This document shows positions 10,871 to 36,988 of a stretch of DNA of 64,000 nucleotides, piece after piece. The notes below the pieces were generated by a model. That model searched no databases and was not told where the DNA came from. It saw only the letters and a list, made by a program, of their open reading frames with translations. Source of the stretch: an uncultured Chloroflexia bacterium (GTDB lineage Bacteria; Chloroflexota; Limnocylindria; Limnocylindrales; CSP1-4); contig CAWHRD010000004.1 in NCBI GenBank assembly GCA_963831745.1, forward strand, positions 46,005 through 110,004, given 5' to 3'. The translations under genes and the position numbers were made by a program. Numbering within the stretch: the first letter of the stretch is position 1; the number at the start of each line of letters is the position of its first letter.

Positions 10871-11791
10871 ATGGGCGAAGCTCCCTACCGGCGCGTGCAC
10901 GTCGTCATCAACCCGGCCTCGGGCAAGGATGAGCCGATCCTCAACGTCCTGAACGACGTCTTCCGCCAGCACGGCGTGGACTGGGACATCAGCCTCACCC
11001 ACAAGTACGGCGATGCCGCCGCGCAGGCCGGGGCAGCCATCGCCGATGGCGTCGACCTGGTCGCAGGGTACGGTGGCGACGGCACCCAGCACGAGATCGC
11101 GAACGCGGTCCTGCTGGCGCAAGCCAGGACGGGCCGAACGACGCCGATGGGCATCCTCCCGGGCGGCACGGGCAACGGCTTCGCGCGCGAGATGGGCGTG
11201 CCGGGGACGCTCCGCGAGGCCGTGACCGTGCTGTGCTCGAGCGTGAGCACGCGCTCGATCGACGTGGGCCGGCTGGTGAGCGTCGCGCAGGCACAGGTCG
11301 AGGACCGCTACTTCATCCAGCGGCTCTACATCGGCATCGAGCCCGAACAGCAGACCAGCCGCGAGCTCAAGGACAAGTACGGCGTCTTCGCGTATGCGGT
11401 GTCCATGGCGGGGCGGGCGAGGAGCGGCACCCGCTGCCGCTACCTGGCCGACGTCGACGGTGAGCACTTCGAGTTCGAGGCATCGAAGATCTACATCGTG
11501 AACTCGGGGATGATGGGCACGGGCCTCAAGATCACCCACACCTACGCCGTCGACGACGGGCTGCTGGACTGCTTCGCGATCGATGCACGCAGCCTCGACA
11601 GCGTCACCGCAGCCGCGGCGCGGTTCCTGACCATCCCCGCGTTGAACGAGATGAACTACCTCCGGCAGGCCCACGCCGTGGCCATCGAGGCCGAGCCCGA
11701 CCAGCCGGTGTGGACGGACGGCGAGTACGTCGGGCGGACGCCGGTCAAGGTCGAGGTCCTCCCGTCGGCCCTGACCGTTGTCGTCCCCTGA
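10871..11791 (+). CDS. Diacylglycerol kinase catalytic-domain family lipid kinase (YegS/DagK-like)
   Basis: VHVVINPASG...GGDGT...GILPGGTGNGFAR motifs. ATG at 10871; an alternative ATG at 10790 lies upstream. Confidence 0.75.
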   Translation: MGEAPYRRVHVVINPASGKDEPILNVLNDVFRQHGVDWDISLTHKYGDAAAQAGAAIADGVDLVAGYGGDGTQHEIANAVLLAQARTGRTTPMGILPGGTGNGFAREMGVPGTLREAVTVLCSSVSTRSIDVGRLVSVAQAQVEDRYFIQRLYIGIEPEQQTSRELKDKYGVFAYAVSMAGRARSGTRCRYLADVDGEHFEFEASKIYIVNSGMMGTGLKITHTYAVDDGLLDCFAIDARSLDSVTAAAARFLTIPALNEMNYLRQAHAVAIEAEPDQPVWTDGEYVGRTPVKVEVLPSALTVVVP

Positions 11792-12332
11792 GGCGCCGGA
11801 GCGGCTCGACGCGTTCCACTGGGCGTTCGACAAGCTGTACCCGGCGATCCGGTTCACCTATGAGCACCTGTTCGGGCATGCCTGGTTCTCCCAGGTCACG
11901 CCCAACCTCTGGATCGGCGGAGCGCCGACCTATCGACGCGACTACGATGCGCTGCTCGCCGACGGGATCACGGCGGTCCTCGACGTTCGAGCCGAGCGCA
12001 TCGCGGACCTTGCGTTCTACGACGCTCACGGCATCTCGCACCGGCGATTCCACGTGCCGGACATCGGCGTCCCGAGTGAGCACGTCCTGACCGAGGCGGT
12101 CGACTGGATCGACGCGCAGCTGGCCGACGGCCATACGGTCCTCGCCCACTGTGCGAAAGGCCGCGGCCGCTCGGCAGCCGTGCTCGCGGCCTACCTCATG
12201 CGGGAGGGTGGGATGACCTACGGCGAGGCGAGCGAGCTGCTGCACTCGAAGCGCTCGCTCGTCAAGCTGGAGGCGCGGCACCGCCACGTGCTCGACGCCT
12301 GGATCGCCACGCAGAGGGCTGTCCCCGGGTGA
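11778..12332 (+). CDS. Dual-specificity protein phosphatase
   Basis: CX5R active site (HCAKGRGRSAAV) in a DSP-like fold. The TTG start at 11778 overlaps the upstream stop, so the start is uncertain. Confidence 0.65.
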   Translation: MSSPEAPERLDAFHWAFDKLYPAIRFTYEHLFGHAWFSQVTPNLWIGGAPTYRRDYDALLADGITAVLDVRAERIADLAFYDAHGISHRRFHVPDIGVPSEHVLTEAVDWIDAQLADGHTVLAHCAKGRGRSAAVLAAYLMREGGMTYGEASELLHSKRSLVKLEARHRHVLDAWIATQRAVPG

Positions 12333-12400: not shown

Positions 12401-13201
12401 CTACGTCACGGCCGGCTTGCCTTTCGGCCAGTAGAGCTCCTTCTTGACGTGGAACTCCGGGAAGCCGCGGTCCATGAGCACGCGTTCCACGTTGAGGATC
12501 ATCTCCGGGTTGCCGCAGATGTAGACGACCGTCCGGTCGGCGCGCAGGCCGAGATCCCGGCAGACGTCGGCGACGACCGCCTCGACGCGCCCGGTACGTC
12601 CGGTCCAGCCGGCGTTCGCCGGGTCGTTGGGGCGCGAGATCGTCGGGACATAGCGGACCGGGTAGAACGCCTCGCCCTCCAGGATCTCGAGCTCGGTGCG
12701 GTAGCCGAGGTCGGCGACCTTCGAAACCCCGTGGAGCATGACGGTCTTCCGTGGCTGCCTCCGGGCCATCGTCTCGCGGATCATGGAGACGAACGGCGCG
12801 AGGCCTGTGCCCGTGGAGACGTAGAGGTGCGTGCGGCGGTCGTCCGGCTCCAGCATGAACTTGCCCTTCGGGCCGATCATCCGCATCCGCGCCCCTGGCT
12901 GGAGGCGCCAGAGCAGCGTCGTGAAGCGGATCACCGGGACGAGGCGGACGTACATCTCGTAGCCCTCGGTCCCCGCGACCGACGGCGCCGACGCCACGGA
13001 GTACGGGCGCTGCCAGAGCTTCTCGTCCGCGAAGACGCCGATCGTCATGTACTGGCCGGGCTCGAACGGGATGGGCTCGCCGTCGAGCTTCACCCAGAAC
13101 GAGGCGAGGTCGGGAGTGTGGTCGACCCGCCGCACGAGCGTGGCGTTGTACTGCGGTGCGTCCTCGGCGATGACGCGGGTGTCCTCGACGTGGTGGCTCA
13201 T
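12401..13201 (-). CDS. fpr: Ferredoxin--NADP(+) reductase (plant-type FNR family)
   Basis: RPYSVAS FAD-binding motif, GTGLAPF NADP motif and a C-terminal aromatic tail. Start at the ATG giving MSHHVEDTRV. Confidence 0.8.
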   Translation of the reverse strand: MSHHVEDTRVIAEDAPQYNATLVRRVDHTPDLASFWVKLDGEPIPFEPGQYMTIGVFADEKLWQRPYSVASAPSVAGTEGYEMYVRLVPVIRFTTLLWRLQPGARMRMIGPKGKFMLEPDDRRTHLYVSTGTGLAPFVSMIRETMARRQPRKTVMLHGVSKVADLGYRTELEILEGEAFYPVRYVPTISRPNDPANAGWTGRTGRVEAVVADVCRDLGLRADRTVVYICGNPEMILNVERVLMDRGFPEFHVKKELYWPKGKPAVT

Positions 13202-13436
13202 GGGGGAGCGGATCTCCTGGCTGGGTCCCTGCCGCGCGGAATCGCGACGCCGCCGCGAGTGTAGACCCGCGTCGGGCCGCGCGACGGCGTCGCCGGGGGC
13301 GCACCGGCCCCCCGGGAGCGGGCCGACCGGTCCCGGTCCCGCCCGCCCGCGGCCGGTACAATCACCCGGACGCCATCGGACCGATCGCGGGGCGACCCCA
13401 TGCCCCGCTGCCATGCACACAGGGAGAACCCGCCCC

Positions 13437-16211
13437 ATGCCCGACGTCGCACCGTCCACGCGCGCCCACGCGGCCGCCAAGCGCTACATCTACGCCTGGG
13501 GCGACGGTCGCGCCGAAGGCAACGGGTCCATGAAGGACCTCCTCGGCGGCAAGGGCGCCGGCCTCGCCGAGATGACGAACGCCGGGCTCCCGACCCCTCC
13601 CGGGTTCACCATCACCACCGAGGCCTGCAACGACTACTTCGAGGCGGGCAAGCAGCTCCCTCCGGGCCTCTGGGAGGACGTCCTGGAGGCGGTGAAGGCC
13701 GTCGAGGCCAGCACCGGCAAGGGCTTCGGCGACCCCAAGAACCCGCTCCTCGTGTCGGTTCGCTCGGGCGCCAAGTTCTCGATGCCGGGGATGATGGACA
13801 CGGTCCTCAACCTGGGCCTCAACGAGGAGACCCTCGAGGGCCTGGTCGCCCTCACCGGCAACGAGCGCTTCGGCTGGGACGCCTACCGGCGCTTCATCCA
13901 GATGTTCGGCCGGATCGTGATGGGCGTCGACGGCGAGCGCTTCGAGCACCCGCTCCAGGCCCGCAAGGACCTCCACGGCCCCGGCGCCAAGGACACCGAC
14001 CTCACCGTCGACGACCTGAAGGCGCTCGTCGCCATCTCCAAGCAGGTGGTCGAGGAGGACACCGGCCGCGCGTTCCCGACCGATCCCGACGAGCAGCTCG
14101 ACCTGGCCATCAAGGCTGTCTTCGCCTCGTGGTTCGGGAAGCGCGCCAACGACTACCGCAACAGCCAGAAGATCGCCCACGACCTCGGCACCGCGGTGAA
14201 CGTCGTGACGATGGTCTTCGGCAACATGGGCGACGACTCCGGCACCGGCGTCGCGTTCACCCGCGACCCGAACACCGGCGAGAAGCTCCTGTACGGCGAG
14301 TACCTCGTCAACGCCCAGGGCGAGGACGTGGTGGCCGGGATCCGGACCCCGGAGAAGATCAGCCACCTGGCCCAGGAGATGCCCGAGGCCTACGCCGAGT
14401 TCCAGCGGATCGCGAACCAGCTCGAGAAGCACTACAAGGACGTCCAGGACCTCGAGTTCACGATCGAGCGCGGCAAGCTCTACATGCTCCAGACGCGCTC
14501 CGCGAAGCGCACCGCGGCGGCGGCGGTGAAGATCGCCGTCGACATGGTGGCCGAGGGCCTCATCGACGAGCGCGAGGCCGTCGGGCGGATCGAGCCCGCG
14601 CAGGTCGACCAGCTCCTGCGGGATCAGTTCGATCCCGTCGCCCGCAAGGCCGCCAAGCAGATCGCGAAGGGCCTCAACGCGTCCCCCGGGGCCGCCGTCG
14701 GGCGTGCCGTCTTCAACGCCGACGTCGCCGTCGAGTGGGTCGCCCGCGGCGAGACCGTGGTGCTGGTGCGCGTCGAGACGTCGCCCGACGACTTCCACGG
14801 CATGGCCGTCGCGCAGGGCATCCTGACCGCCCGCGGCGGCGCGACGTCGCACGCGGCCGTGGTCGCGCGCCAGATCGGCAAGCCCTGCGTGGCCGGCTGC
14901 GCCGAGCTGGTCGTCGACTACGCCACGAAGACCGCCCGCTCCAGCGACTCCGGGGTCGAGTTCGGCGAGGGCGACCTCATCAGCGTCGACGGCTCGACGG
15001 GCGAGGTCTTCCTCGGCGCGCTGCCGACCGTGTCGGCACGGTTCGAGGACCAGCCCGAGCTCCAGACGATCCTGGGCTGGGCCGACGGGATCCGCCGGCT
15101 CCAGATCTGGACGAACGCCGACAAGCCGGAGGAGGCCGCCCAGGCCCGCGGCTACGGCGCCCAGGGCATCGGCCTGTGCCGGACGGAGCACATGTTCCGC
15201 GAGGGCGAGCGCCTCGACATCGTCCGCGGCGCCATCCTCGTCGCGAACGCTGCGACGCGGGCCAAGGCCCGGATCGCAGCGGGCGAGGAGCTGACGGCCG
15301 AGGATGCCGAGGCCGTCGCGACGTTCGACGCGGCGATGGCCAAGCTGGAGGCGCTCCAGCAGGGCGACTTCGAGGGGATCCTCGCGGCCATGTCGGGCCT
15401 GCCGGTGGTCATCCGGCTCATCGACCCGCCGCTCCACGAGTTCCTCCCCAACCTCGAGGACCAGCTCGTCAAGGTCACCCGCGCCGGGGACGCCGCCACC
15501 GACGAGGACCGCGAGCTCCTCGCGACCATCAAGTCGATGCACGAGCAGAACCCGATGCTCGGCCTTCGCGGCTGCCGCCTCGGGCTGATGATCCCGGACT
15601 TCGTGAAGATCCAGACCCGGGCGATCCTCAACGCCGCCGTGACGGTGAAGCGCGCCGGCAAGGACCCGCGGCCGGAGATCATGATCCCGCTCGTCGGCCA
15701 CGTGAACGAGCTGATCGCCACCCGCAGGCTCCTCGACGCCGAGGCGGAGGCCGTCGTCAAGGCGGCCGGCGAGGCCATCGACTTCAAGTTCGGCACGATG
15801 ATCGAGATCCCGCGGGCCGTGTGGGTCGCCGACCAGATCGCGGAGCATGCGGAGTTCTTCAGCTTCGGCACCAACGACCTGACCCAGATGACCTTCGGCT
15901 ACAGCCGCGACGACGCGGAGGGCGGCTTCCTCCTCAAGTACGTCGAGGACGGCATCCTCCCGGAGAACCCGTTCCAGACCCTCGACGACGTGATCGCCGA
16001 CGAGATGCAGATGGCGGTCGACCGGGGTCGCGCCGCGCGGCCCGGCCTCAAGGTCGGCATCTGTGGCGAGCACGGCGGCGATCCCGCCTCGATCCACAAG
16101 TGCGAGAAGATCGGCCTCAACTACGTCTCCTGCTCGCCCTTCCGCGTCCCCGTGGCGCGGCTGGCGGCAGCCCAGGCGGCGATGTCCGACGGCGCCTTCC
16201 GCGACAAGTAG
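13437..16211 (+). CDS. ppdK: Pyruvate, phosphate dikinase
   Basis: 924 aa with the ATP-grasp N-domain, the phospho-histidine domain (GGATSHAAVVARQIGKPCVAG) and the PEP/pyruvate TIM-barrel domain (FFSFGTNDLTQMTFG; ICGEHGGDP). Confidence 0.92.
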   Translation: MPDVAPSTRAHAAAKRYIYAWGDGRAEGNGSMKDLLGGKGAGLAEMTNAGLPTPPGFTITTEACNDYFEAGKQLPPGLWEDVLEAVKAVEASTGKGFGDPKNPLLVSVRSGAKFSMPGMMDTVLNLGLNEETLEGLVALTGNERFGWDAYRRFIQMFGRIVMGVDGERFEHPLQARKDLHGPGAKDTDLTVDDLKALVAISKQVVEEDTGRAFPTDPDEQLDLAIKAVFASWFGKRANDYRNSQKIAHDLGTAVNVVTMVFGNMGDDSGTGVAFTRDPNTGEKLLYGEYLVNAQGEDVVAGIRTPEKISHLAQEMPEAYAEFQRIANQLEKHYKDVQDLEFTIERGKLYMLQTRSAKRTAAAAVKIAVDMVAEGLIDEREAVGRIEPAQVDQLLRDQFDPVARKAAKQIAKGLNASPGAAVGRAVFNADVAVEWVARGETVVLVRVETSPDDFHGMAVAQGILTARGGATSHAAVVARQIGKPCVAGCAELVVDYATKTARSSDSGVEFGEGDLISVDGSTGEVFLGALPTVSARFEDQPELQTILGWADGIRRLQIWTNADKPEEAAQARGYGAQGIGLCRTEHMFREGERLDIVRGAILVANAATRAKARIAAGEELTAEDAEAVATFDAAMAKLEALQQGDFEGILAAMSGLPVVIRLIDPPLHEFLPNLEDQLVKVTRAGDAATDEDRELLATIKSMHEQNPMLGLRGCRLGLMIPDFVKIQTRAILNAAVTVKRAGKDPRPEIMIPLVGHVNELIATRRLLDAEAEAVVKAAGEAIDFKFGTMIEIPRAVWVADQIAEHAEFFSFGTNDLTQMTFGYSRDDAEGGFLLKYVEDGILPENPFQTLDDVIADEMQMAVDRGRAARPGLKVGICGEHGGDPASIHKCEKIGLNYVSCSPFRVPVARLAAAQAAMSDGAFRDK

Positions 16212-16472: not shown

Positions 16473-18710
16473 GTGTCGATGGCGCGCACCGCAACCCAGG
16501 ATCCAGCCGGCGGCCGATCCGCCGGTCGTGACCGGCGCTCGTCGGCTGCGCCCGTCGTCGGCGCGTACGCCGTCGTCGGCGTCACCTGGATCCTGGCCTC
16601 CGACGTCTTCGTGCGGGCCGTGCTGCCGGGCCGTGCCGGCGAGCTCATCGGGTCCGTCAAAGGCGTCGGCTTCGTCGTCGTGACGACGATCGCGCTGTGG
16701 GGGATCCTCGCCGCGCGCGATCACCTGCTCGCGCGGACCGAGCGCGAGCGCATCGCCGCCGTGGAGGCGACGACGGCCATCTTCCGCTCGAGCCCGCTGG
16801 CGATCGTCGCGGCTGATCGCGACGGCCGCATCAGCGCCTGGAGCCCGGCAGCCGAGCGCGTGCTGGGCTGGCGCGAGGACGAGGTGGTCGGCCGACCCGC
16901 GACCATCCTGCGCCCCGACGACCCCGCCTGGGTCTCGCGGGGCTTCGCCGAGGTCATGGCGGGAGAGACGCTGGTCGCCGTCCCGGTGCGCTACCCGCAC
17001 CGCGACGGCCGGCCGCGCGACCTCGAGCTCTTCGTGGCCCCGCTGCGCGACGATGCCGGGGGGGTCCGCGGCGCGGTGGTCGTGGCGGAGGACGTCACGG
17101 CGATCCACGAGGCGCAGGCGGAGCGTGCCCGCCTCGCCACCGCCATCGACCAGGCGGCCGAGGCGATCGTGGTCACCGACCCCGACGGCCGGATCGTCTA
17201 CGCCAACCCCGCCTTCGAGCGGGTGACGGGCTACCCGCGGGCGGAGCTGCTGGGCCAGAACCCGCGCGTCCTCAAGAGCGGCGCCCACGACAGCGCCTTC
17301 TACGCCCGCCTCTGGTCGACCCTGCTCGCCGGCGAGACCTGGCGAGGAACGCTGACGAACCGCCGCAAGGACGGCACCCTTTTCGAGGAGGAGGCGGCGA
17401 TCTCCCCGGTCCGTGACTCGGCAGGCCGGATCACCGCGTACGTCGCCGTCAAGCGCGACCTGACCGCGGAGCGGGCGCTCGAAGCCGGCCTGCGCGCGGA
17501 GCTCGCCGACCGCGCTGCGGTGCGCGCAGCGATCGGCAGGATCACCGTCGGGCGGACGCCCGAGGCGACGGCCGAGTCGATCGTCGAGGCGCTGCTCCAC
17601 GTCGACGGGCTCGAGCATCCGTCGGTCTTCCACCTTGCCAGCCGGCCCGGGCGCGTGTTCCGCCTCGCCGGGCGCGTTCCGGGGGTGCGCATCGTGCCCG
17701 GCGAGGAGATGTCGGACGAGCGGGCCGAGTACCTGCGCCGACGGGCCGCCGACGGGCCCTGGATCCACGTCTTCGCCCACGAGCCGCCGCCGGGCGCGAA
17801 CGCCACGGCGATCGTCAGCGCGGGAGGCATCACGGGCGGGATCTACGCCCCGGTGGTCCACCAAGGGCGGGTCGTGGGCGTCGTGGGCGGCGTGACGACG
17901 CGGCCAGACCCCGCCGCGACGCTGGGCCGGCGGCTCGGCGCGCTCCTCGAGCTCGCCGTGGTCGCCGGGCCCATCCTCGCCCCGCAGCTGGCGGCGCGCG
18001 AGGATCTCGAGGGAGCGCGGGCGAGCATCCGGACGATCGCCCGAGGCCGCCGGTTCCACCCGGTGTTCCAGCCGATCGTGCGGCTCGCCGACCGCGGGGC
18101 GACCGGCTACGAGGCGCTGACGCGGTTCGCCGACGGGGTCGCGCCCGACGTGCGGTTCGCGGAGGCGGCGGCGCTCGGCGCCGGGATCGAGCTCGAGACG
18201 GCCTGCCTCCGCGCTGCGGTCGCGGCGGCGGGCGACCTCCCCGGGGACGCCTGGCTCAGCCTGAACGCCTCGGGGGCGATGATCCGGTCGGGCCGCCTGC
18301 GGACGATCCTGCGGCGGGTCGACCGCGACGTCGTCATCGAGCTGACGGAGCATGTCACCGTCGATGATTACGCCGGCCTGCGCGCCGCCATCGAGGCGCT
18401 CGGGCCCGGCGTGCGGCTGGCGGTCGACGACGGCGGCGCGGGCTTTGCCGGGCTGCGCCACGTCGTGGAGCTGCGCCCGCACATCGTGAAGCTCGACGCG
18501 GCCATCGTGCGGGGGATCGACGGCGATCCGGTGCGGCAGTCGCTGGTGGCCGGCATGCTCCACTACGCCCGCACGACCGGGACCTTCGTCGTCGCGGAAG
18601 GCGTCGAGACCGAGATGGAGGCGCAGACGCTCGCCGGGCTCGGCGTCGAGCTCGCGCAGGGCTACCTCTTCGCACGCCCGGCGCCGCTCGCGGACGGCCG
18701 CGCCGCCTGA
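16473..18710 (+). CDS. Membrane-anchored PAS-PAS-EAL domain protein (cyclic-di-GMP phosphodiesterase family), with an apparently degenerate central sensor domain and no GGDEF motif
   Basis: Two N-terminal TM helices, two PAS domains (RDGRISAWSPAAERVLGW; DGRIVYANPAFERVTGY...RKDGTLFEEE) and a C-terminal EAL domain (ELTE...DDGGAGFAG...KLD). GTG start. Confidence 0.8.
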   Translation: MSMARTATQDPAGGRSAGRDRRSSAAPVVGAYAVVGVTWILASDVFVRAVLPGRAGELIGSVKGVGFVVVTTIALWGILAARDHLLARTERERIAAVEATTAIFRSSPLAIVAADRDGRISAWSPAAERVLGWREDEVVGRPATILRPDDPAWVSRGFAEVMAGETLVAVPVRYPHRDGRPRDLELFVAPLRDDAGGVRGAVVVAEDVTAIHEAQAERARLATAIDQAAEAIVVTDPDGRIVYANPAFERVTGYPRAELLGQNPRVLKSGAHDSAFYARLWSTLLAGETWRGTLTNRRKDGTLFEEEAAISPVRDSAGRITAYVAVKRDLTAERALEAGLRAELADRAAVRAAIGRITVGRTPEATAESIVEALLHVDGLEHPSVFHLASRPGRVFRLAGRVPGVRIVPGEEMSDERAEYLRRRAADGPWIHVFAHEPPPGANATAIVSAGGITGGIYAPVVHQGRVVGVVGGVTTRPDPAATLGRRLGALLELAVVAGPILAPQLAAREDLEGARASIRTIARGRRFHPVFQPIVRLADRGATGYEALTRFADGVAPDVRFAEAAALGAGIELETACLRAAVAAAGDLPGDAWLSLNASGAMIRSGRLRTILRRVDRDVVIELTEHVTVDDYAGLRAAIEALGPGVRLAVDDGGAGFAGLRHVVELRPHIVKLDAAIVRGIDGDPVRQSLVAGMLHYARTTGTFVVAEGVETEMEAQTLAGLGVELAQGYLFARPAPLADGRAA

Positions 18711-18834
18711 CGCGCCGCGCCGCGCGGCGCCGGGAGCCGGCCTCTGTGCCGCCTGGCGTACCGCCCGGCAAGCCCGTGCAGCGGGCGGGGCCACGGCGTC
18801 GGGGCCACGGCGCAACGGCCACGGCGCCGGACAC

Positions 18835-18864
18835 CCCGAGACCCCGGCGGGCCGGGGTCTCGGG
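18835..18864. terminator. Perfect 13-bp GC hairpin with a 4-nt loop between convergent genes; candidate bidirectional terminator
   Basis: cccgagaccccgg-cggg-ccggggtctcggg, about 125 nt after the EAL-protein stop and about 110 nt after the minus-strand small ORF. Confidence 0.45.
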
Positions 18865-18971
18865 CGGAGGAGAGGCGGGCGAAGCGGGGGAGGAGTCCCG
18901 CTCGCCACGAGGCTTCGATCAAGGGCGGTGGCGCCCCGGGCGGCGCGGCCGCCCGGGGCACCGGGACAGGG

Positions 18972-19145
18972 TCAGCGGGCCACCGCCGGCCGCCACGGGA
19001 GAAGGAGGCGCCGCGGACGGTCGCGCCCGGCGTGCTCCGTCCCCCCCGCCGCCTGCCGGTTCCCCCCGGCGAGCCGCCGCTTGGCGGCCTCGACGGTCAG
19101 GTCGGCGTGACGGTGCTCGGCAACGAGCGCATGGGACCAGTTCAT
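18972..19145 (-). CDS. Hypothetical small protein (57 aa), preceded by a near-consensus Shine-Dalgarno; existence uncertain
   Basis: GGAGGAAGGAGG lies 5-6 nt upstream of the ATG (forward cctccttcctcc at 19152-19163). The N-terminal 27 aa (MNWSHALVAEHRHADLTVEAAKRRLAG) are protein-like but the C-terminus is low-complexity. Confidence 0.3.
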   Translation of the reverse strand: MNWSHALVAEHRHADLTVEAAKRRLAGGNRQAAGGTEHAGRDRPRRLLLPWRPAVAR

Positions 19146-19294
19146 CGCGGTCCTCCTTCCTCCCGGGCGGTGCGGCGGCCCGGGACGCTGGAGCAAGGAT
19201 GCGGCCGGCACGGCCTCGTGGGCGCTGGGCGCGTGTCGCCTGCGCGGCCGGCGGAACGTTGGCGAGGCGGGATCGTCGGCCGTCCATGCCCGGG

Positions 19295-19312
19295 ATCGTC
19301 ATCCGTCCATCC
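19295..19312 (-). repeat. Copy A of an exact 18-nt motif GGATGGACGGATGACGAT (minus-strand reading)
   Basis: Identical to 25705..25722. Encodes the mini-uORF ATG-GAC-GGA-TGA whose stop overlaps (ATGA) the next ATG. Confidence 0.6.
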
Positions 19313-19395
19313 CGCCGCCCGGAGCGTGCGGCGTTCGGCTCCTGAGTGCCGCCGGTACCGGGTGGAGGCGTCCGAGCCGCCGCGCCCGGACGCGG

Positions 19396-20043
19396 TCAGT
19401 CGACCAGGTGGTGCTCCACGGCCCACAGGGCGGCCTGGGTCCGGGACGCGAGCCCAAGCTTGCCCAGGATGTTGGAGACGTACGTGCGCGCCGTCCGCTC
19501 GGTGATGAAGAGCTCGGCGGCGATCTCCTTGTTGCTCATGCCCCTGCCGAGGAGCCGGAGGACGTCCTTCTCGCGGTCGGTCAGAGGCTCGGCCGCCTCC
19601 TCGTCGGCGGGACGGCGGCGCAGGCGCTGGGCGAGAAGCCGCGCGACCGCGGGATCCAGGTGGACGTTCCCATCGTGGGCGTCCCGGATCGCCGAGGCCA
19701 CCTCGTCGGCGGCGGCGTCCTTGAGCAGGTACCCCGCCGCGCCGGCCTCGAGGGCGGCCGTGACCTTCTCCTCCTCGATGAAGCTCGTCATGGCGACGAC
19801 CTCCACGTCGGGGAGCTCCTCGCGGATCCTGCCGATCGCGGTGATGCCGTCCATGCGGGGCATCAGGAGGTCCATGAGGACGACGTCGGGGGTGAGGCGG
19901 CGCGCCATCGCCAGGCCCTCGCTCCCGTCGGAGGCCTCGCCGACGACCTCGATGTCGTCGAGGAGGTCGAGGAACACGTGGAGGCCGGCGCGCACGACCT
20001 GGTGATCGTCCACGATCAAGACGCGGATCGGCGTCTCGGACAC
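19396..20043 (-). CDS. Two-component response regulator, NarL/FixJ (LuxR-type HTH) family
   Basis: Receiver domain (VLIVDDHQVVRAGL...VVLMDLLMP...VVAMTS...) plus a LuxR HTH (LTDREKDVLRLLGRGMSNKEIAAELFITERTARTYVSNILGKLG). GTG start at 20043. Confidence 0.85.
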   Translation of the reverse strand: MSETPIRVLIVDDHQVVRAGLHVFLDLLDDIEVVGEASDGSEGLAMARRLTPDVVLMDLLMPRMDGITAIGRIREELPDVEVVAMTSFIEEEKVTAALEAGAAGYLLKDAAADEVASAIRDAHDGNVHLDPAVARLLAQRLRRRPADEEAAEPLTDREKDVLRLLGRGMSNKEIAAELFITERTARTYVSNILGKLGLASRTQAALWAVEHHLVD

Positions 20044-20120
20044 GCTGGGCCCTCCTTCGAGCCCGGCCGGCCCATCGGCGAGCCCGGCCGGCGCATCGGC
20101 GCGGGCGGCGACGCCCCGCC

Positions 20121-20588
20121 TCATGCGGTCGTCCCGAGCATAGCATCGGCATCCGCGCCGGGACCGCGGCGCGGCCGGGCGGGGGCGCGCAGCGCGTCGA
20201 CGATCCGGTCCGCGAGGTCGCCGCCCTCCGGCGAAACGATGCTGATCCCGGGATCGTCGGCGAGGATCGGCGCCAGGCCCGGCGACCATGCCACCACCAC
20301 GACCCGGACCTCGGGCCGGTCGGCCCGCAGCCCGCGGATGAAGGCGATCCCGTCGGGCAGCTCCGGGAGCCGCGGGTCGACGACCACCGCGTCGGGGCGC
20401 CGCTCCTCGCAGGCGTCGAGCGCGGCGCGCGCATGGCCGACGCTGCCCACGACCTCCACCAGCTCCGCCAGGTCGAGGAGGCCCGCCAGGCTTGACCGGA
20501 CGCGCCGGTCCGCGTCCACGATCAGCAGGCGCAGCAGGCCGGGAGGCTCGACGCGGGGCACGGCGCGATCGGGCTCGTGGGGGATCAT
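20121..20588 (-). CDS. Stand-alone receiver (REC) domain protein, atypical (conserved Lys apparently absent)
   Basis: LLIVDADRRVRSSLAGLL...DAVVVDPRLPELPDGIAFIRGL...VRVVVVAWS. It sits between the giant kinase and the NarL regulator on the same strand. Confidence 0.55.
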   Translation of the reverse strand: MIPHEPDRAVPRVEPPGLLRLLIVDADRRVRSSLAGLLDLAELVEVVGSVGHARAALDACEERRPDAVVVDPRLPELPDGIAFIRGLRADRPEVRVVVVAWSPGLAPILADDPGISIVSPEGGDLADRIVDALRAPARPRRGPGADADAMLGTTA

Positions 20589-20708
20589 GCCGGCGAGCGT
20601 CCCACGCCCGCGCCCGGGCCGGGAACGGACGGTCGTCGGGTGCCGGCATCGACGAATGACGATGGCGGGAGCCGCGCGAGCGCCGGGGCGGCGGCCAGGC
20701 GCAGGGGG

Positions 20709-23700
20709 TCAGGCCGCCGGCGGCGTGGGTGGCGCGTGCAGCGTGACGACGATCTCCGTTCCCCGGCCCGGCGCGGAGCGGACGACGAGCCTGCCGCCCA
20801 CCCGCTCGGCCCGCGAGCGCATGCCCGCCAGGCCCAGGTGCCCGTCGGCGACCTCCAGCGGATCGAAGCCGACCCCGTCGTCGGCGATGCGGAGCGCGAC
20901 CTCCGGGCCGTCCCGGCCGAGCTCGATGCGCACCGTGGTGGCGTTGGCGTGCTTCACGATGTTGTGGAGCGCCTCCTGGGCGATTCGATACAGGGCGTCC
21001 TCCGCGGCGAGCGGCAGCCGCTCCACCTCGGCGACGTCGAGGACGATCGGCAGGCCGAGCCGCCCCTCGACGGCGGCCACGTGGGTGCGCAGGGCGTTCG
21101 TCAGGCCCTCGCGCTCGAGGCTGCCCGGCCGGAGCTCGAAGATCAGCGACCGCATCTCCGCGAGGGCGTCGCGCTGGAGCTCGCGGAGGTCCGCCAGCTT
21201 CGCGCGCGTCGCGGCGGGATCGCGGTCGAGCAGCACCTCGGCCGAGCGGGTGATGAGACCCATCGAGAAGAGCGCCTGCGTCACCGAGTCGTGGAGCTCG
21301 CGAGCGAGGTGCGCCCGCTCGGCGGAGGACGCCAGGGCGCCCGCCTGGTCGCGCAGCTCGCGCTCGAGGCGCACCTGCTCCCGGAGGTCCCGGATGGTCC
21401 CCTGGATGCCCGCGAAGCGCCCGTCCCTGAACAGGGGGACGCCCGAGATCTCGGCGGGGATCTGCGTGCCGTCCCGCCGGACGACCGTGGAGCGGACCCG
21501 CGCGACGGCATCGGGCGGGCCATCGGCGAGAGGCCTGAGCCGGGCCCGCACCTCCTCGACGGCCTCGGGCGCGACGACCGTGCTCCAGTGGCGCGCCATG
21601 AGCTCCTCGGGCTCCCAGCCGAGGAGGGACCGCGCGGCGTCGCTCCAGAACACCAGGTTGCCGGCCGGGTCCGTCTGCCAGACACCGTCCGGGGATGTCT
21701 GGACGAGCTCGCGGAAGCGCGCCTCCGAGTCGCGCAGCTCGCGCTCGAGGCGCAGCTGGTCCCGAAGGTCGCGAATTGATCCGTGCGCGCCGGCAAACCG
21801 TCCGTCGCGGGTGACCGGGACCGCGGCGATCTCGGACGGAAGCGGCTCGCCCGTCCGGCGGACCAGGTCGAGGCGGACGCGGACCACCCGGTCGTCGCCG
21901 TCGGCGAGCTGCCGCCAGGCGTCGGAGGCCGCCTCGGTGGCCCGGCCGCCGACGACCGTGGACCAGTGGCGTCCCAGGACGGCCTCGGGCGGGAACCCGG
22001 TGAGCATCGCCGCGGTGTCGCTCCAGAAGGTGAACACGCCGTCGGCGTCGGCCTGCCAGACGCCGTCCGGCGATGTCTGAACGAGGTCGCGGTAGCGCTC
22101 CTCGGACTCCCGGAGCTCGGCCTCCAGGCGGGCGCGCTCGCGGATGTCGCGGGCCGAGCCGCGCGACCCGACGAAGGCGCCGTCGACGACGCGCGGCACC
22201 GCGACGTTCTCGATCGGGACGGGGTACCCGTCGCGGTGGAGCAGCGAGAAGCGGGCGGTGTGGATCCGGTCCGGCTCGCGGCGGCTCGCCTCCCAGAGGT
22301 CGTTCGACGCCGCCTGCGAGGCCTCGTCGGGGAAGACCGTCGCCGAGAAGTGGCGCCCGACGAGCTCGCTGGCGGGGAGGCCCAGCATCTCGCGCGAGAG
22401 GCCCTCGATGTACACCAGGTTGCCCTCCGCGTCGGCCTCCCAGACGAGGTCGGGCGAGGTCGCCATCAGGTCGCGCAGCCGGGCGTCGGACTCGCGCAGC
22501 TCCCGCTCGAGGCGCTCGCGCTCGCTGACGTCACGGATCGCTCCGTGCGCGCCGCCGAACACACCATCGTCGAGGATCCCGACCGCCGAGACCTCCGTCG
22601 CGATGGTCGACCCGTCCCGGCGTCGCAGGACCAGGCGCTGGCGGATCGGCTCACGCTCCTCCGCGAGCCGGGCCCAGTCGGCGCGCGCCTCCTCCAGCGA
22701 GTCCGGGTCGACGATGCGCTCCCAGGACTCCCCGACGAGCTCGTCGGGGCGATACCCCAGGAGCGTCTCGACGGTCGAGCTGAAGAAGCTGAAGCGGCCC
22801 TCCCGGTCGATCCGCCAGATCGTGTCGGGCGACGCCTGCACGAGGTAGCGGTAGCGCTCCTCCGACGAGCTGACGCGGCCGATGAGGACGGCGTTCCGCA
22901 GCGCGGCCGCCGCGAGCCCGGCGAGCGCCTCGAGCGTTGCCGTGGCGTCGAGATCGAAGGCGTCGGCCCTGCGCGACAGCACGGTCAGGGCACCGATCGG
23001 GCCCTCGAGCCCACGGATCGGGGCCGCCAGGACGGACCGGACGCCCAGCCGGCGGATCCCCTCGTCCTGCTCGGGCCGCCGGGCGAAGGACCGGTCCTCG
23101 AGGTAGTCGCCCGTGCCGAAGGCGTGCCCCAGGCGGATCGCCGCGCCGGCCACGCCGGGTGCGTCGTCCCAGTCGTCGACCTCGAACCCGAGGCGGAACT
23201 GGTCGTCGCTGACGATCTCGCCGAGCTGCCGCCGGAGGGCGACGCCCTCGTCGCCGACGATGTCGACGCGCGCCCCGTCGGCGCCGAGGAGGCGGGCGGC
23301 CTCGTCGACCGTCAGCTGGACGATCTCCCCGGGCTCGCGCAGCTCGCCGATGCGCGCCGCGATCTCGCGGAGTGCGCGCTCGCGCGTGGCGCGCCGGGCG
23401 TTCTCCTCGGTGGCCCGGGCCAGTGCCGCCAGGCGCCGGCTGTTGGTCAGCGCAATCGAGGCCTGGACGGCGAACGCATCGAGGAGGTCGGCGTCGGCCT
23501 CTCCGAATGCCGCGGTCCGGACCGCGAGGACCGACAGGGTTCCGAGCGGCCGGCCGAGGCCCGGCAGCGGCGTCGAGAGGACGGAGCGGACCCCGGTCTC
23601 CGCCACGAACCGGCCGGACGCCGGGCCCGGCCGGACGCTCGGGTCCGCGAGGTAGTCGTCGGTCCAGACGGCACGACCCTCGGCGGCCGCGCGCCCGGCG

Positions 23701-25712
23701 ACGCCCTCGCCCATCGCGAGCCCGACCTCCCGGAGGAGCCTGGCGTCCGCGTCGGCCGTGGTCCCGTCGGCGATGGCCCAGCGGAGGCGCATCGTGGTCT
23801 CGTCGAGCAGGTCGATGCGGGCCCCGTCGGCACCGATGAGGCGCCGCGCCTCGGCGACGATGCGGCGCAGGAGCTCGTCGGGGTTGCCCACGGCCGTCAG
23901 GCGCGCGCCGATCTCGCGGAGCGCGGCCTCCCGCTCCGCCTGCCGGCGCAGGTCGTCGCGCGACCGGTCGAGGTCCTCGATCAGGCGCGCGCTGCCCAGG
24001 CTGATCGCGACCTGGGCCGCGATCGCTTCGAGAAGGGGGGCATGCTCCGACCCGAACGCGTTCGCCCGCGTCGAGAGGACGGTGAGCGCGCCGAGCGGGC
24101 CCGCCTCGCCGACGAGCGGCGCGGCGATCCCGGACCGGATCCCGACGCGGCGGACGTACACGTCCGCGCCCGACCCGTGCGGGAAGGTGTCGTCCCCGAG
24201 GTAGTCGCCGGTCCAGACGGTGCGGCCGTGCGTGTACGCCTGCCCCGAGAGGCCCTGGTCGGCGCGCTCGTCCGGCGTGTCGGGCCACTCCTCGAGCGTC
24301 GGCTGGGTCCCGTCGGACGTGTAGAGGCCGCGCAGGAGGCCGATCGCGGGCTGGTAGACATCCACCCTGGCGCTGTCCCCACCGAGCAGGCGGGTCGCCT
24401 CGTCGATCGCGAGCCCGACGACCTCGTCGACCCCGTGCGACGCGGAGATCCGCATCCCGATCTCCCGCAGGGCCCGCTCAACCTCGGCGCGGCGCGCCAG
24501 CTCGGCGCGGGACGCGGACAGCTCGGCGATGCGGAGCGCGTTGGAGATCGCGGCGGCGGTCTGCGTCGCGAGCGCCTCGAGCACCTCGAGATCCGACGCG
24601 CCGTAGGCCTGCGGCCGGTGGCTCGCCACCTGGATCGTGCCGAGGGTCCGGCCCTCGACCGAGAGCGGGGCGGCGGCCGTCGACCGGATCCCGGCGGCGG
24701 CCGCGCTGTGATCGGTCCGCGGGTCGTGGATGAACGTGCGGTCCCCGATGTAGTCGCCCGTCGCGACGGCGCGCCCGTGCAGCAGCGCCCTGCCCCAGAC
24801 GCCCGGGAGCTCGGCGGGATCCATCTCCCCGGCCACCACGGGGTCGCTGAAGTCGGCCGCGGCGTCGACCGGATCGGTGAAGAGGGAGCGCCCGGCGACC
24901 GCCTCGCTCAGGCTGATGGCGGCGAGGTGGGAGTCGAGGAGGCGTCGCGCGGCGCGGAGGATCGTCCCGAGGATCTCCATCGGGTCGTCCATGGCGCTGA
25001 TGCGGGCGGCGATCTCGCGGAGCGTCCGCTCCTCCTCGGCGCGCCGGGCGATCGCGCCGTTGGCAGCTTCGAGCTCGGCGATCAGCCGGGCGTTCTCGAG
25101 GGCGATGGCCGCCTGGGCGGCGAACGCCTCGAGCAGCTCGGCGTCGGCCTCGTCGAAGGCGTGCTCCCGCTGGGCGTACACCTCGAGGGCGCCGTAGAGC
25201 TCGGTCGCGCTCGCGATCGGCGCGGCCAGGAGCGACCGGAACCCCGTCACGTTGAAGAAATGGTCGGACTGGGGGACGCGGGGGAAGGCATTGACCAGGT
25301 CCTCGCCGCAGGCGAGGACCTGGCGTTCCGCCACGGCCCGGCCCGTGAGGCCGACGCCGACCTCGAGCGTCAGGGTGGCGACGTAGTCGGGGTCGAAGAG
25401 CGCGTGGACGCCGTCGTCGACGCCCCAGTGGAGGAGCCCGTCCGCCGGGTCGTAGCGCGAGACGATCGCGCCGTCGGCGCGAACGAGGCGCCCGGCTGCG
25501 AGGACCACCTGCTGGAGCACGGCGCCCGGGTCGCGCAGCCGGGCGAGCTCGCCGGTGATCTCGCGCAGCGTGCGCTCGGCCTCGGCGGTGCGGGCGCGCG
25601 CGTCGGGTGCGGGCGGGAGCGGTGGGCGAGCGCGGTCGGTCTCCACGGCCCGTGAGGATACCCGCGCGGGCCCGCGCGCGACATCGCCGTCCCGCCGCGC
25701 CGGCATCGTCAT
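20709..25712 (-). CDS. Giant cytoplasmic multi-sensor histidine kinase: 5 tandem GAF domains, 4 tandem PAS domains, then a HisKA_3 plus HATPase_c kinase core (about 1667 aa)
   Basis: Each GAF is introduced by a repeated linker (ARRAExERxLREI). The four PAS modules are strongly similar (LVQTSPDGVWQxDxxGxxxFWSD). H-box ELHDSVTQALF (NarL-partner HisKA_3 type); N/G boxes in the C-terminus. Start at the ATG giving MTMPARRDG. Confidence 0.85.
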   Translation of the reverse strand: MTMPARRDGDVARGPARVSSRAVETDRARPPLPPAPDARARTAEAERTLREITGELARLRDPGAVLQQVVLAAGRLVRADGAIVSRYDPADGLLHWGVDDGVHALFDPDYVATLTLEVGVGLTGRAVAERQVLACGEDLVNAFPRVPQSDHFFNVTGFRSLLAAPIASATELYGALEVYAQREHAFDEADAELLEAFAAQAAIALENARLIAELEAANGAIARRAEEERTLREIAARISAMDDPMEILGTILRAARRLLDSHLAAISLSEAVAGRSLFTDPVDAAADFSDPVVAGEMDPAELPGVWGRALLHGRAVATGDYIGDRTFIHDPRTDHSAAAAGIRSTAAAPLSVEGRTLGTIQVASHRPQAYGASDLEVLEALATQTAAAISNALRIAELSASRAELARRAEVERALREIGMRISASHGVDEVVGLAIDEATRLLGGDSARVDVYQPAIGLLRGLYTSDGTQPTLEEWPDTPDERADQGLSGQAYTHGRTVWTGDYLGDDTFPHGSGADVYVRRVGIRSGIAAPLVGEAGPLGALTVLSTRANAFGSEHAPLLEAIAAQVAISLGSARLIEDLDRSRDDLRRQAEREAALREIGARLTAVGNPDELLRRIVAEARRLIGADGARIDLLDETTMRLRWAIADGTTADADARLLREVGLAMGEGVAGRAAAEGRAVWTDDYLADPSVRPGPASGRFVAETGVRSVLSTPLPGLGRPLGTLSVLAVRTAAFGEADADLLDAFAVQASIALTNSRRLAALARATEENARRATRERALREIAARIGELREPGEIVQLTVDEAARLLGADGARVDIVGDEGVALRRQLGEIVSDDQFRLGFEVDDWDDAPGVAGAAIRLGHAFGTGDYLEDRSFARRPEQDEGIRRLGVRSVLAAPIRGLEGPIGALTVLSRRADAFDLDATATLEALAGLAAAALRNAVLIGRVSSSEERYRYLVQASPDTIWRIDREGRFSFFSSTVETLLGYRPDELVGESWERIVDPDSLEEARADWARLAEEREPIRQRLVLRRRDGSTIATEVSAVGILDDGVFGGAHGAIRDVSERERLERELRESDARLRDLMATSPDLVWEADAEGNLVYIEGLSREMLGLPASELVGRHFSATVFPDEASQAASNDLWEASRREPDRIHTARFSLLHRDGYPVPIENVAVPRVVDGAFVGSRGSARDIRERARLEAELRESEERYRDLVQTSPDGVWQADADGVFTFWSDTAAMLTGFPPEAVLGRHWSTVVGGRATEAASDAWRQLADGDDRVVRVRLDLVRRTGEPLPSEIAAVPVTRDGRFAGAHGSIRDLRDQLRLERELRDSEARFRELVQTSPDGVWQTDPAGNLVFWSDAARSLLGWEPEELMARHWSTVVAPEAVEEVRARLRPLADGPPDAVARVRSTVVRRDGTQIPAEISGVPLFRDGRFAGIQGTIRDLREQVRLERELRDQAGALASSAERAHLARELHDSVTQALFSMGLITRSAEVLLDRDPAATRAKLADLRELQRDALAEMRSLIFELRPGSLEREGLTNALRTHVAAVEGRLGLPIVLDVAEVERLPLAAEDALYRIAQEALHNIVKHANATTVRIELGRDGPEVALRIADDGVGFDPLEVADGHLGLAGMRSRAERVGGRLVVRSAPGRGTEIVVTLHAPPTPPAA

Positions 25713-25722
25713 CCGTCCATCC
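25705..25722 (-). repeat. Copy B of the exact 18-nt motif GGATGGACGGATGACGAT, coinciding with the translation start of the giant histidine kinase
   Basis: Identical to 19295..19312. The kinase ATG (25712..25710) is embedded as ggATGAcg. Confidence 0.6.
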
Positions 25723-25808
25723 TGCGACCGGCGCTGGGCGGCGCATTCGAGCCCCGGCCCGGATGGCGGCCCGGCGCGGCTTCGCGGGACCGGCCGTATC
25801 CTGTTCCT

Positions 25809-26654
25809 ATGAGCGCCGGCGTCCTCCTGTCGTCCCGCGCCGCCGCGAGCGACGCATCGTCCGCCGCGCCCCTCGTCGTCGCCGACCTCGAGGGGACGTG
25901 CACGGCCGGCGAGACCTGGCGAGGCGTCGGCGCGTGGCTCTCCGCGAACGGCCGCGGCGGCCGGTATAGGCGCTTCCTGGCGCCCCGCATGGCGGCCCTT
26001 CCCCTGGTGCGGCTCGGGCTCATCTCGCGCCAGGCATTCCGCGACCGCTGGATCGCCGATCTCGCACGGCTCCTCGACGACCTCGATCGCGACGAGCTGG
26101 CGCTGGTCGCCGAGGAGGTCGTCGAGCGGCACCTGTGGCCCCCCAGGCGCGACTCGGTCATCGCCGAGCTCGAGGCCGCTGCCGCGTCGGGTGCGCGTGT
26201 CGCGATCGCAACCGGCACCTACCAGCCCGTGCTCGACGCGTTCATCGCCCGCCTCGCGACGGGGCCCGCGGGACCCGTCGCGGGCCTCGGCACGGCGCTC
26301 GAGATCGTCGACGGCGTCACGACGGGCCGGCTCGTCGGACGGATCGGCACCGGGAGCCGGAAGGCACGCCGCGTCCGTGCATGGGCGGGCGAGGCGGCCC
26401 CCGTAGCGGGCGAGGCGGCCGCCGGCACGGGCGACGCGGCCCCCGCAACGGGCGACGCGGCCCCCGCAACGTGCAAGGCGGTCCTCGGAGGTGGCGGCGC
26501 GGCCCTTGCGGCAGCCTATGGCGACTCATTGGCGGACGTCCCGCTCCTCGAGATGGCCGCCGAGCCGGTCGCCGTCGCGCCCGACCCCGAGCTCCGGGCG
26601 CTCGCCGTCGCGCGCGGGTGGCGCATCCTCGACGACGTGGCCGCGGGGACATAG
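25809..26654 (+). CDS. HAD-superfamily subfamily IB hydrolase (phosphoserine-phosphatase-like)
   Basis: DLEGT motif I, a capping domain, and GDSLADVPLL motif IV. It contains an in-frame 21-nt tandem duplication (GDAAPAT x2). Confidence 0.7.
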   Translation: MSAGVLLSSRAAASDASSAAPLVVADLEGTCTAGETWRGVGAWLSANGRGGRYRRFLAPRMAALPLVRLGLISRQAFRDRWIADLARLLDDLDRDELALVAEEVVERHLWPPRRDSVIAELEAAAASGARVAIATGTYQPVLDAFIARLATGPAGPVAGLGTALEIVDGVTTGRLVGRIGTGSRKARRVRAWAGEAAPVAGEAAAGTGDAAPATGDAAPATCKAVLGGGGAALAAAYGDSLADVPLLEMAAEPVAVAPDPELRALAVARGWRILDDVAAGT

Positions 26655-35112: not shown

Positions 35113-35905
35113 TCAGGTCGTCGCCGGCCGGGCGCCGGGCCTCGTCGACCATCGCCTCCAGCCGCTCGACGTAGGTCCGCGTGTTGGCGTCGCCGGCGGT
35201 CGCGGCATCCAGGCGCGCCAGCATGCGGCGCGCCTCGTCCCGCAGCTCGCCCATGGCGATCTCGACGTCGAGGTGGCGGCCCACGAGGCCCAGCAGCTCG
35301 ACCGAGGCGGGCGGGTAGGCCCCGGTCACGTAGTGCGGGACCTGGGCGTAGTAGCCGACCGCCGGGACGCCGGCGCGGCTGACGGCAATGTCGAGCACGG
35401 AGATCGCCGCCGCCGGCACCCGGAGCACTCCCTCGGGGCCCGGGGCGACGTCGCCGCGCAGCAGCCCGGCCTGCGACTCGGTGCCCAGGACGGTCACCGG
35501 GCGCGTGTGGGGCACCGCGGCCGGGATGGCCCCCAGGCTGATCCACGTCGCCACGTCGAGGCCGCGGGCGAGGTCGATCACCGCCGATTCCAGCTCCCTC
35601 CAGCGGTAGTCCGGCTCGGGACCCGCGAGCACGAGCAGGTCGCGCTCGCCGAAGCGGGCGCGGCGCAACGTCAGCTCGGGCCACGTCAGGCGGTCCGGGC
35701 GGCCGTCGGCGATCTCGAGTGTGGGCCGGCGCGAGCGGTAGTCGTAGAGACGGTCCGTGTCGAAGGTCGCGATGGTCTCCGCGTCCTCCGCCAGGCGCGC
35801 GGCTGCGGCCGTCGCGGCGGAGCCGGCGTCGACCCAGCCGTCGAACGACGCGACCAGGAGGGGCGCGACGAGGTCGCCGGGATCGCGGAGGTCGACGAGG
35901 CTCAC
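35060..35905 (-). CDS. PAC2 (proteasome-assembly-chaperone-like) family protein
   Basis: 281 aa of typical actinobacterial PAC2 length and composition (LVASFDGWVDAGSAA...). It converges on the GT4 gene with a 53-nt 3' overlap. Confidence 0.7.
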   Translation of the reverse strand: MSLVDLRDPGDLVAPLLVASFDGWVDAGSAATAAAARLAEDAETIATFDTDRLYDYRSRRPTLEIADGRPDRLTWPELTLRRARFGERDLLVLAGPEPDYRWRELESAVIDLARGLDVATWISLGAIPAAVPHTRPVTVLGTESQAGLLRGDVAPGPEGVLRVPAAAISVLDIAVSRAGVPAVGYYAQVPHYVTGAYPPASVELLGLVGRHLDVEIAMGELRDEARRMLARLDAATAGDANTRTYVERLEAMVDEARRPAGDDLITEIEQFLRDQGGGERS

Positions 35906-36824: not shown

Positions 36825-36988
36825 CGCCAGAAACGCACTCCGGCGGATCAGCCGCTGGTGCCGAGCACGCTGCCGCTCGACTCCAGCTGCCGCCGTTTCC
36901 GAACTATAGAGATCGCGGAGGGGCAGCGTCCTCGACGATGCGCGCTCGCGGCGTCGCCGGTGCCGGCCACCGCCAGCGACTCCCGGGC

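Follow-up and report, generated by a model that had tools for sequence, protein, structure and literature searches.

The window analysed here, a 64,000-nucleotide stretch of contig CAWHRD010000004.1 (assembly GCA_963831745.1) from an uncultured Chloroflexia bacterium, contains at positions 19396 to 25712 three minus-strand genes that encode a soluble sensor histidine kinase, a small receiver-like protein and a NarL/LiaR-type response regulator. The evidence described below points, with a probability that we put only slightly above one half (about 0.55), to one conserved, branched two-component module of Limnocylindria-type Chloroflexota, in which the small protein, a stand-alone pseudo-receiver, would work as a stoichiometric modulator of the kinase. 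This degenerate receiver is the only unusual part of the system and represents its testable novelty. Since the G+C content of the window is 69-79%, spurious long open reading frames (ORFs) are abundant on both strands; genuine protein signal between 19396 and 25712 was observed in these three minus-strand frames.

A conserved unit of kinase, receiver-only protein and regulator

Conservation was analysed in 40 related loci with a strong match to the kinase core. In 36 of these loci, the kinase gene is followed at a distance of 27-250 bp by a receiver-only gene. A NarL-type regulator, 64-97% identical to that of the window, is encoded on the same strand, either as the next gene or on the other side of the kinase, upstream of it. 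The former arrangement is found in the window and in loci L001-L004, L040, L080 and L081. The neighbouring genes outside these three, which encode pyruvate phosphate dikinase (PPDK), a PAS-EAL protein, a HAD hydrolase, a polysaccharide deacetylase and an amino-acid permease, flank the unit in no related locus other than L001, the closest relative, and for this reason the three genes can be considered a conserved unit. A genome scan found one locus per metagenome-assembled genome (MAG), which suggests that the system is single-copy and belongs to the core of the lineage. When the window was compared with L001, the ratio of non-synonymous to synonymous substitution rates (dN/dS) was lowest in the regulator gene (0.036), followed by the receiver-only gene (0.23) and the kinase gene (0.30); the pseudo-receiver gene is under purifying selection.

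The kinase gene (20709-25712, 1667 aa) starts with the ATG at 25712, which has an AGGA a few bases upstream, and stops with the TGA at 20709-20711. A protein search retrieved a public protein (P0001) with the same length and sequence. The preliminary description of this DNA had assigned to the kinase five GAF domains, four PAS domains and a HisKA_3-type core, and had seen no transmembrane segments. Pfam hidden Markov models (HMMs) upheld the domain assignments, adding a HATPase_c domain, and the highest Kyte-Doolittle mean over 19 residues was 1.49, in agreement with a soluble protein. The HisKA_3 dimerisation/phosphotransfer domain (residues 1465-1532, positions 21117-21320) matched PF07730 with 60.3 bits as compared to a cut-off of 24. 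In the translation, the phospho-accepting His1474 lies in the sequence LARELHDSVTQ, and beside it a DxxxQ motif is formed by D1475-S-V-T-Q1479. This motif is the phosphatase determinant of HisKA_3 kinases such as NarX and DesK. The HATPase_c catalytic domain (residues 1571-1660, positions 20733-21002) matched PF02518 with 54.2 bits and contains the G1 box (D1611xG1613xG1615) and the G2 box (G1624..G1630); the N box (N1584) is present too. On the basis of its sequence, the kinase is a soluble HisKA_3 enzyme with intact His box, DxxxQ, N, G1 and G2 boxes. The closest solved relatives of this core, in a search of the PDB, were DesK (E 4e-17), VraS and DosT/DevS, with hits to their ATP-binding domains in the HATPase_c part.

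The regulator gene (19396-20043, 215 aa) starts with a GTG at 20043, preceded by the Shine-Dalgarno sequence GAAGGAGG at 20051-20058, and its product consists of a receiver (REC) domain and a GerE helix-turn-helix (HTH) domain. Membership of the NarL/FixJ family was evident from the Response_reg (99.7 bits) and GerE (70.6 bits) matches, and the catalytic quintet DD/D/T/K is complete (in VDDH, MDLLMP, AMTS and LLKD). Its best solved relative is LiaR/VraR (E 1.6e-57), followed by NarL and DevR. Because the equivalog cut-offs of NarL, MctR and MadR were not reached, we placed the regulator at the family level only; none of the three proteins of the unit reached an NCBIfam equivalog cut-off. The regulator is 97% identical to its L001 orthologue. 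The match between a HisKA_3 kinase and a NarL-type regulator, which had already been pointed out from the sequence, therefore holds on both sides in the Pfam analysis.

The pseudo-receiver and its possible role

The 155-aa protein is encoded at 20121-20588, with gaps of 120 nt from the stop codon of the kinase gene and 77 nt to the regulator gene. It matched Response_reg with 43.3 bits (cut-off 30.2), over profile positions 2-76 of 111. Its residues were mapped by aligning it with CheY and with the receiver-only family. The phospho-acceptor Asp, D57 in CheY, corresponds to D71, which is invariant in the family within a DPRLP motif. Of the other features of a canonical receiver, the DD pair, T87 with a small residue after it, and K109 are all missing. 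In the acidic pair, D12 is retained as the invariant D25 and D13 is replaced by A26 (Ala in at least 90% of the family); the position after D13 is occupied by D27, also invariant. T87, at the end of beta4, corresponds to A100 (Ala or Gly in nearly all members), A88 at the T+1 position to W101 (Trp in at least 90%), and Y106 to I117 (Tyr in most of the wider family). The preliminary description had observed that the protein lacks the usual KP lysine, and this is correct: K109, after beta5, corresponds to P120, and the whole protein contains no Lys. This is the latest of the three catalytic losses, since K109 is missing only in the subclade of the window protein (about 37 protein clusters, at least 58% identity) and is kept, as YVSK, in most of the wider family. 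The kinase too is depleted in Lys (2 Lys as compared to 199 Arg in 1667 aa). Such scarcity fits the 75-79% G+C of positions 19396-25712, and the receiver may have lost its Lys partly through mutational bias.

An AlphaFold2 model, built with 34 homologues, had a mean predicted local distance difference test score (pLDDT) of 81 and predicts a complete (beta-alpha)5 receiver with beta4 at residues 95-99, a short alpha4 and a disordered tail. The solved folds nearest to this model are the receivers of LiaR, DesR, Mycobacterium tuberculosis NarL and RcsB, and the protein is therefore a NarL-family receiver without HTH domain. Besides, a VR..L...LDL pattern in alpha1 is common to the pseudo-receiver and to the NarL-type regulator, the receiver domain of which is about 35% identical to it. 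We also considered that the receiver-only gene might be a frameshifted fragment of the regulator gene, and rejected this possibility, given that it is kept as a separate ORF in 36 loci and that it shares only that level of identity with the regulator's receiver. A pseudo-receiver has been defined as a receiver missing any of five conserved residues (PMC12632262). The 155-aa protein, with a receiver fold in the model and three of the five residues absent, falls within this definition. According to the same work, the T+1 residue is normally small (Ala or Gly), which leaves access to the phosphorylation site, and a bulky residue at this position is associated with lack of phosphorylation (PMC12632262).

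The C-terminal tail of the protein (20121-20183, minus strand) ends in DADAMLGTTA. In the subclade this corresponds to a DADA[MR]LGxTA motif, which follows a variable linker rich in Pro, Gly and Arg, whereas sister-clade pseudo-receivers end in a Cys pair (..DAC..C). These motifs may serve docking, degradation or redox/metal functions.

Absence of three catalytic residues, together with a Pfam match confined to part of the profile, could be taken as a sign that the receiver-only gene is a functionless, degenerating duplicate of the regulator's receiver domain. We regard this as extremely improbable. Across a whole class, 36 of 40 loci have the gene at this place, its dN/dS is 0.23, and the family has invariant residues of its own (V24, D25, D27, R31, D71, P75 and G80, with W101 in at least 90%) in a complete fold that is confidently predicted.

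The preliminary description had proposed that the protein could act as a phosphate sink. In this case the kinase would phosphorylate D71, draining phosphoryl groups from the NarL-type regulator and making its response sharper or shorter. CheY-type phosphate sinks operate in some chemotaxis pathways. The invariance of the Asp within DPRLP and of D25 and D27, the YVSK Lys found in most members outside the window's subclade, the adjacency of the receiver-only and kinase genes, and a complete predicted fold of the NarL type, which is the type that pairs with HisKA_3 kinases, are all in line with this hypothesis. On the other hand, the window protein has Ala, Ala and Pro in place of D13, T87 and K109, and Trp at a T+1 position that is normally Ala or Gly. 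Moreover, the whole subclade lost the Lys and purifying selection was kept, which argues for a function that is independent of phosphoryl chemistry. A sink is thus the less likely option, and we consider it unlikely overall.

For the same reasons, namely the three missing residues, the Trp at T+1 and the purifying selection that persisted after loss of the Lys, a role in binding is more likely than one in draining phosphate. We propose that the kinase would work as a long parallel dimer, in which signals from some of the GAF and PAS modules would travel through helical linkers and shift the balance between kinase and phosphatase activities towards the NarL-type regulator, which, so controlled, would alter transcription. 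The pseudo-receiver would not be a normal phospho-switch: it would dock on the dimerisation and histidine phosphotransfer (DHp) helices of the kinase, as DesR does on DesK, and once docked would compete with the regulator or shift the kinase output, biasing it between kinase and phosphatase activity. A precedent is found in Rhodobacter sphaeroides, where Osp, a small receiver-like protein, acts on the transmitter of the histidine kinase CckA and inhibits the kinase directly (PMC9430884). The window protein has no specific sequence relationship to Osp; its putative partner is a HisKA_3 kinase and not a hybrid kinase such as CckA, and it retains the phospho-acceptor Asp.

Another role, which we consider rather improbable, would be that of an output adaptor: the pseudo-receiver, phosphorylated or not, would be a second output of the kinase, acting on a different target through its C-terminal tail. 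Single-domain receivers acting on non-kinase partners are documented, and both the presence of two subclades with distinct conserved C-terminal motifs after a variable linker and the predicted disorder of the window protein's tail would fit such a role. However, no candidate partner gene is conserved beside the module, flank synteny being confined to L001, and the tail motif varies between subclades while the adjacency to the kinase is constant.

Several observations weigh against the pseudo-receiver being a binding modulator within one branched module. Gene adjacency and fold are the sole grounds from which we infer its binding to the kinase, for the window protein as opposed to Osp. Throughout the family, the phospho-acceptor Asp and the acidic D25 and D27 are kept, and most of the wider family also has the Lys; therefore, the ancestral pseudo-receiver may have been phosphorylated, and the window version might accept phosphate slowly. 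The invariant Asp leaves a sink or a relay some probability. As for the putative co-transcription of the three genes, it has to face the 120- and 77-nt gaps and the regulator's own strong Shine-Dalgarno sequence. Neither a sigma-70-like promoter nor an intrinsic terminator consensus was found in 18500-26200, a result that speaks neither for nor against it. Finally, profile search and motif reading found no ligand-binding signature for any GAF or PAS module.

The GAF/PAS array of the kinase

The five GAF modules occupy residues 40-948 of the kinase (positions 22869-25595), each recognised by both GAF_2 (271 bits) and GAF (226 bits) in five stretches above the curated cut-off. The four PAS modules follow at residues 949-1452 (positions 21357-22868), with four stretches each for PF00989 (PAS, 176 bits), PAS_4 and TIGR00229 (285 bits). 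The preliminary description had seen the same linker, ARRAExERxLREI, before every GAF domain. A linker of the A[ER].ER.LREI type does precede all five of them, and the strict pattern holds in four, GAF4 having the variant LRRQAEREAALREI. The LREI of these linkers is found at residues 49, 231, 415, 598 and 781, i.e. with a period of 182-184 aa. The PAS units are joined by IRD..E..RLE.ELR.SE linkers (RLE.ELR.SE..[YF]R.L), with a period of 125-128 residues.

Nine tandem modules on one soluble kinase had been described as exceptional. In a search of 5.8 billion proteins, at least 606 homologues of the kinase were found at E ≤ 1e-30. Those with a source name, and likewise the genomic loci, come almost all from Chloroflexota MAGs labelled Limnocylindria/Limnocylindrales or 'uncultured Chloroflexia', and Limnocylindria-type Chloroflexota are known mainly from such genomes. 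An actinobacterial origin, which a G+C content of 70-79% might suggest, was rejected because the close relatives are all Chloroflexota MAGs. Modules were counted in the best 120 of the 606 homologues with HMMs made from the window kinase's own repeats, and the statements that follow refer to these 120. Their Pfam content is the same as that of the window kinase throughout, and almost all of them share one plan, (GAF)4-9 followed by (PAS)2-6 and by the HisKA_3 kinase core. The number of sensor modules per protein ranges from 7 to 14, with a mode of 10-11, and the longest homologue (2522 aa) has 9 GAF and 5 PAS modules. The nine modules of the window kinase are below the mode; it is exceptional against textbook kinases only, and ordinary within its lineage.

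The PAS modules had also been interpreted as recent internal duplications, in view of a nearly identical string (LVQTSPDGVWQ...FWSD...HWSTVV) attributed to all four PAS domains. This string is present in PAS3 and PAS4 and absent from the other two. GAF paralogues are 33-46% identical to each other and PAS pairs 38-45%, with the exception of PAS3 and PAS4 (59.5% at the protein and 67% at the DNA level). When each module was compared with those of the close relatives P0002-P0013, a positional orthologue with 64-92% identity was found in at least one of them, as compared to 37-57% for the best paralogue within the same protein. Because identity to orthologues exceeds identity to paralogues, the duplications, including that of PAS3 and PAS4, predate the species splits and are not recent.

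Conservation is far from uniform along the array. The best conserved modules are GAF1, GAF4, PAS3 and PAS4. GAF2 is 46-50% identical in most relatives (GAF2, PAS1 and PAS2 taken together, 43-57%), and in P0002 it is 49% identical, with flanking GAF modules at 68-88%. PAS1 has a clear orthologue, 88% identical, in P0003 only, and this protein, 68% identical overall, has no GAF3 orthologue and an apparently different order of PAS1 and PAS2. Sensor modules are thus swapped or lost between close orthologues, which suggests recombination at the conserved linkers.

With regard to ligands, Lys is absent from the sensor region (residues 1-1452), and the one Cys found there, C135 in GAF1, is also the lone Cys of the kinase; GAF2-GAF5 and residues 949-1452 are Cys-free. 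The NKFDE signature of cyclic nucleotide monophosphate binding by GAF domains of the PDE/CyaB type was not found in this Lys-free region; in GAF1 and GAF4 the Phe-x3 position is followed by Asp-Ala and not by the Asp-Glu of NKFDE. The bilin-attachment Cys of phytochrome and cyanobacteriochrome GAF domains is absent from GAF2-GAF5, C135 being the sole Cys, and the Cys of the LOV flavin adduct (GxNCRFLQ) is absent from the PAS array. Therefore, the NKFDE signature, Cys-linked bilins in GAF2-GAF5 and LOV-type Cys adducts in the PAS units are excluded. In comparisons with solved structures, the GAF profile gave weak, generic matches to CyaB2, PDE10A and PDE2A (E 1e-10 to 1e-5) and a weak one to GAF-A of DevS (E 2e-6); the PAS profile matched FixL and LOV domains in the same weak, generic way. 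With matches of this kind and none of the three signatures present, we dropped any ligand assignment to the GAF and PAS modules.

These data bear on the proposal, also contained in the preliminary description, that the kinase integrates many intracellular cues, in the sense that each of the five GAF and four PAS modules would bind its own ligand and the kinase would sum nine inputs. By their profile scores, all nine modules are genuine GAF or PAS domains, and most of them are 64-92% conserved between close relatives and are thus not decaying. Nevertheless, we judge nine separate inputs quite unlikely, considering that module number varies from 7 to 14 among orthologous systems, that individual modules are lost or replaced in close relatives, that no cofactor motif was recognised (with Cys-linked bilins excluded in at least four of the five GAF modules and LOV adducts excluded) and that the profile matches to solved domains are weak and generic. 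The unequal conservation and the variable number of the modules rather suggest a few core sensors, with GAF1, GAF4, PAS3 and PAS4 as candidates, combined with exchangeable or transmission modules.

Genomic surroundings and relation to known systems

In the sister clade (loci L006-L047), a class III adenylate/guanylate cyclase homology domain precedes the NarL-type regulator, for instance at L022:3733-5226 (plus strand). This domain matches cyclases of the Ma1120 and Rv1900c types in the PDB (E 1e-13), and Pfam gives no call for it at E<0.001. Cyclase and regulator share one reading frame, with no stop codon between them, in 18 of 20 loci, which implies a cyclase-REC-HTH fusion next to the multi-GAF kinase and hints at a link with cyclic nucleotides. 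In the window, the only cyclase seen near the multi-GAF kinase is a 344-aa protein with a C-terminal class III cyclase domain (PF00211, 49 bits), encoded at 35958-36992 (minus strand), about 10 kb from the kinase start, and adjoining a PAC2-family gene (35060-35905, minus strand).

In most loci of the family, the gene that lies directly upstream of the kinase, in divergent orientation, encodes a conserved membrane protein of about 143 aa for which Pfam gave no match (at L022:5290-5718, minus strand, and in the equivalent place in about 35 loci; also at L080:6952-7386 and L081:6337-6765). Beyond it, L080 and L081 contain a cupredoxin gene. The membrane-protein gene is absent from the window, where its place, just upstream of the kinase, is taken by the HAD hydrolase gene (25809-26654, plus strand).

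At the other end, a gene on the plus strand (16473-18710) converges on the three genes and encodes a 745-aa PAS-PAS-...-EAL protein, which is likely a cyclic di-GMP phosphodiesterase; its syntenic copy in L001 is 86% identical. Residues 340-520, approximately, between the PAS and EAL domains, have no Pfam match and may represent a degenerate GGDEF domain. The 685 bp between this gene and the regulator gene (18711-19395) contain only Arg/Pro-rich, spurious-looking ORFs, with no Rfam match and no terminator consensus; the Rfam search was negative for the window as a whole. Farther from the downstream end of the three genes, on the other side of the EAL gene, lie the PPDK gene (13047-16211, plus strand), which is syntenic in L001, and a gene for a dual-specificity protein phosphatase (DSPc/Tc-R-P; 11775-12332, plus strand).

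A literature search found no paper joining 'Limnocylindria' with 'histidine kinase', and a search on tandem GAF domains with HisKA_3 gave general reviews and unrelated systems only. DesK-DesR of Bacillus subtilis, LiaS-LiaR/VraS-VraR and NarX-NarL likewise combine a HisKA_3 kinase, carrying His-Asp-x-x-x-Gln, with a NarL-family regulator. However, DesK, LiaS/VraS and NarX are membrane kinases with small sensor parts, whereas the window kinase is soluble and has nine cytoplasmic modules; furthermore, those systems have no obligatory stand-alone pseudo-receiver. DevS/DosT-DevR of M. tuberculosis is similar in that a NarL-type regulator is combined with a soluble kinase of the HisKA_3 type that carries tandem GAF domains at its N terminus, the likeness being at the generic GAF level. 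DevS and DosT have two GAF domains, one of which binds haem, and neither a PAS array nor a pseudo-receiver, in contrast to the 5 GAF and 4 PAS modules of the window kinase. Long tandem arrays feeding one kinase core are also found in cyanobacterial and archaeal multi-GAF/multi-PAS kinases (cyanobacteriochrome arrays, MsmS-type). The window kinase differs from these in its HisKA_3 core and NarL-type partner, and cyanobacteriochrome GAF domains need a conserved bilin Cys, whereas its sensor region has one Cys in 1452 residues. Receivers that regulate kinases are also known among single-domain proteins of the DivK type. The unit works like a HisKA_3/NarL system of the DesK-DesR, LiaS-LiaR or DevS-DevR kind, and it differs in its soluble kinase, its long GAF/PAS array of variable copy number and its obligatory pseudo-receiver.

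A bolder reading joins three possibilities. The pseudo-receiver may be dedicated to regulating the HisKA_3 kinase, on which it would sit, essentially non-phosphorylatable, and whose output it would gate. The GAF/PAS rod may be evolvable, with modules being gained, lost or exchanged at conserved helical linkers. In the sister clade, a feedback loop could link the multi-GAF kinase to the synthesis of cyclic nucleotides. Taken jointly, gating pseudo-receiver, evolvable array and cyclase loop would make up an undescribed architecture, core to an abundant uncultured class of soil and freshwater bacteria; this is a tentative idea, which we hold with low confidence.

Taken by itself, the kinase gene belongs to a large family in which it is ordinary, and it leaves the knowledge of two-component signalling unchanged. 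The family as a whole, with orthologous kinases of 7-14 modules, provides a natural series for studying how signals travel through GAF/PAS arrays and how these arrays evolve. The activation and inactivation of bacterial pseudo-receivers have been described as unknown (PMC12632262), and a pseudo-receiver with an obvious partner kinase offers a handle on this question. As the regulator is 64-97% conserved and the unit is present in one copy per retrieved genome, it probably controls something central to the physiology of these bacteria.

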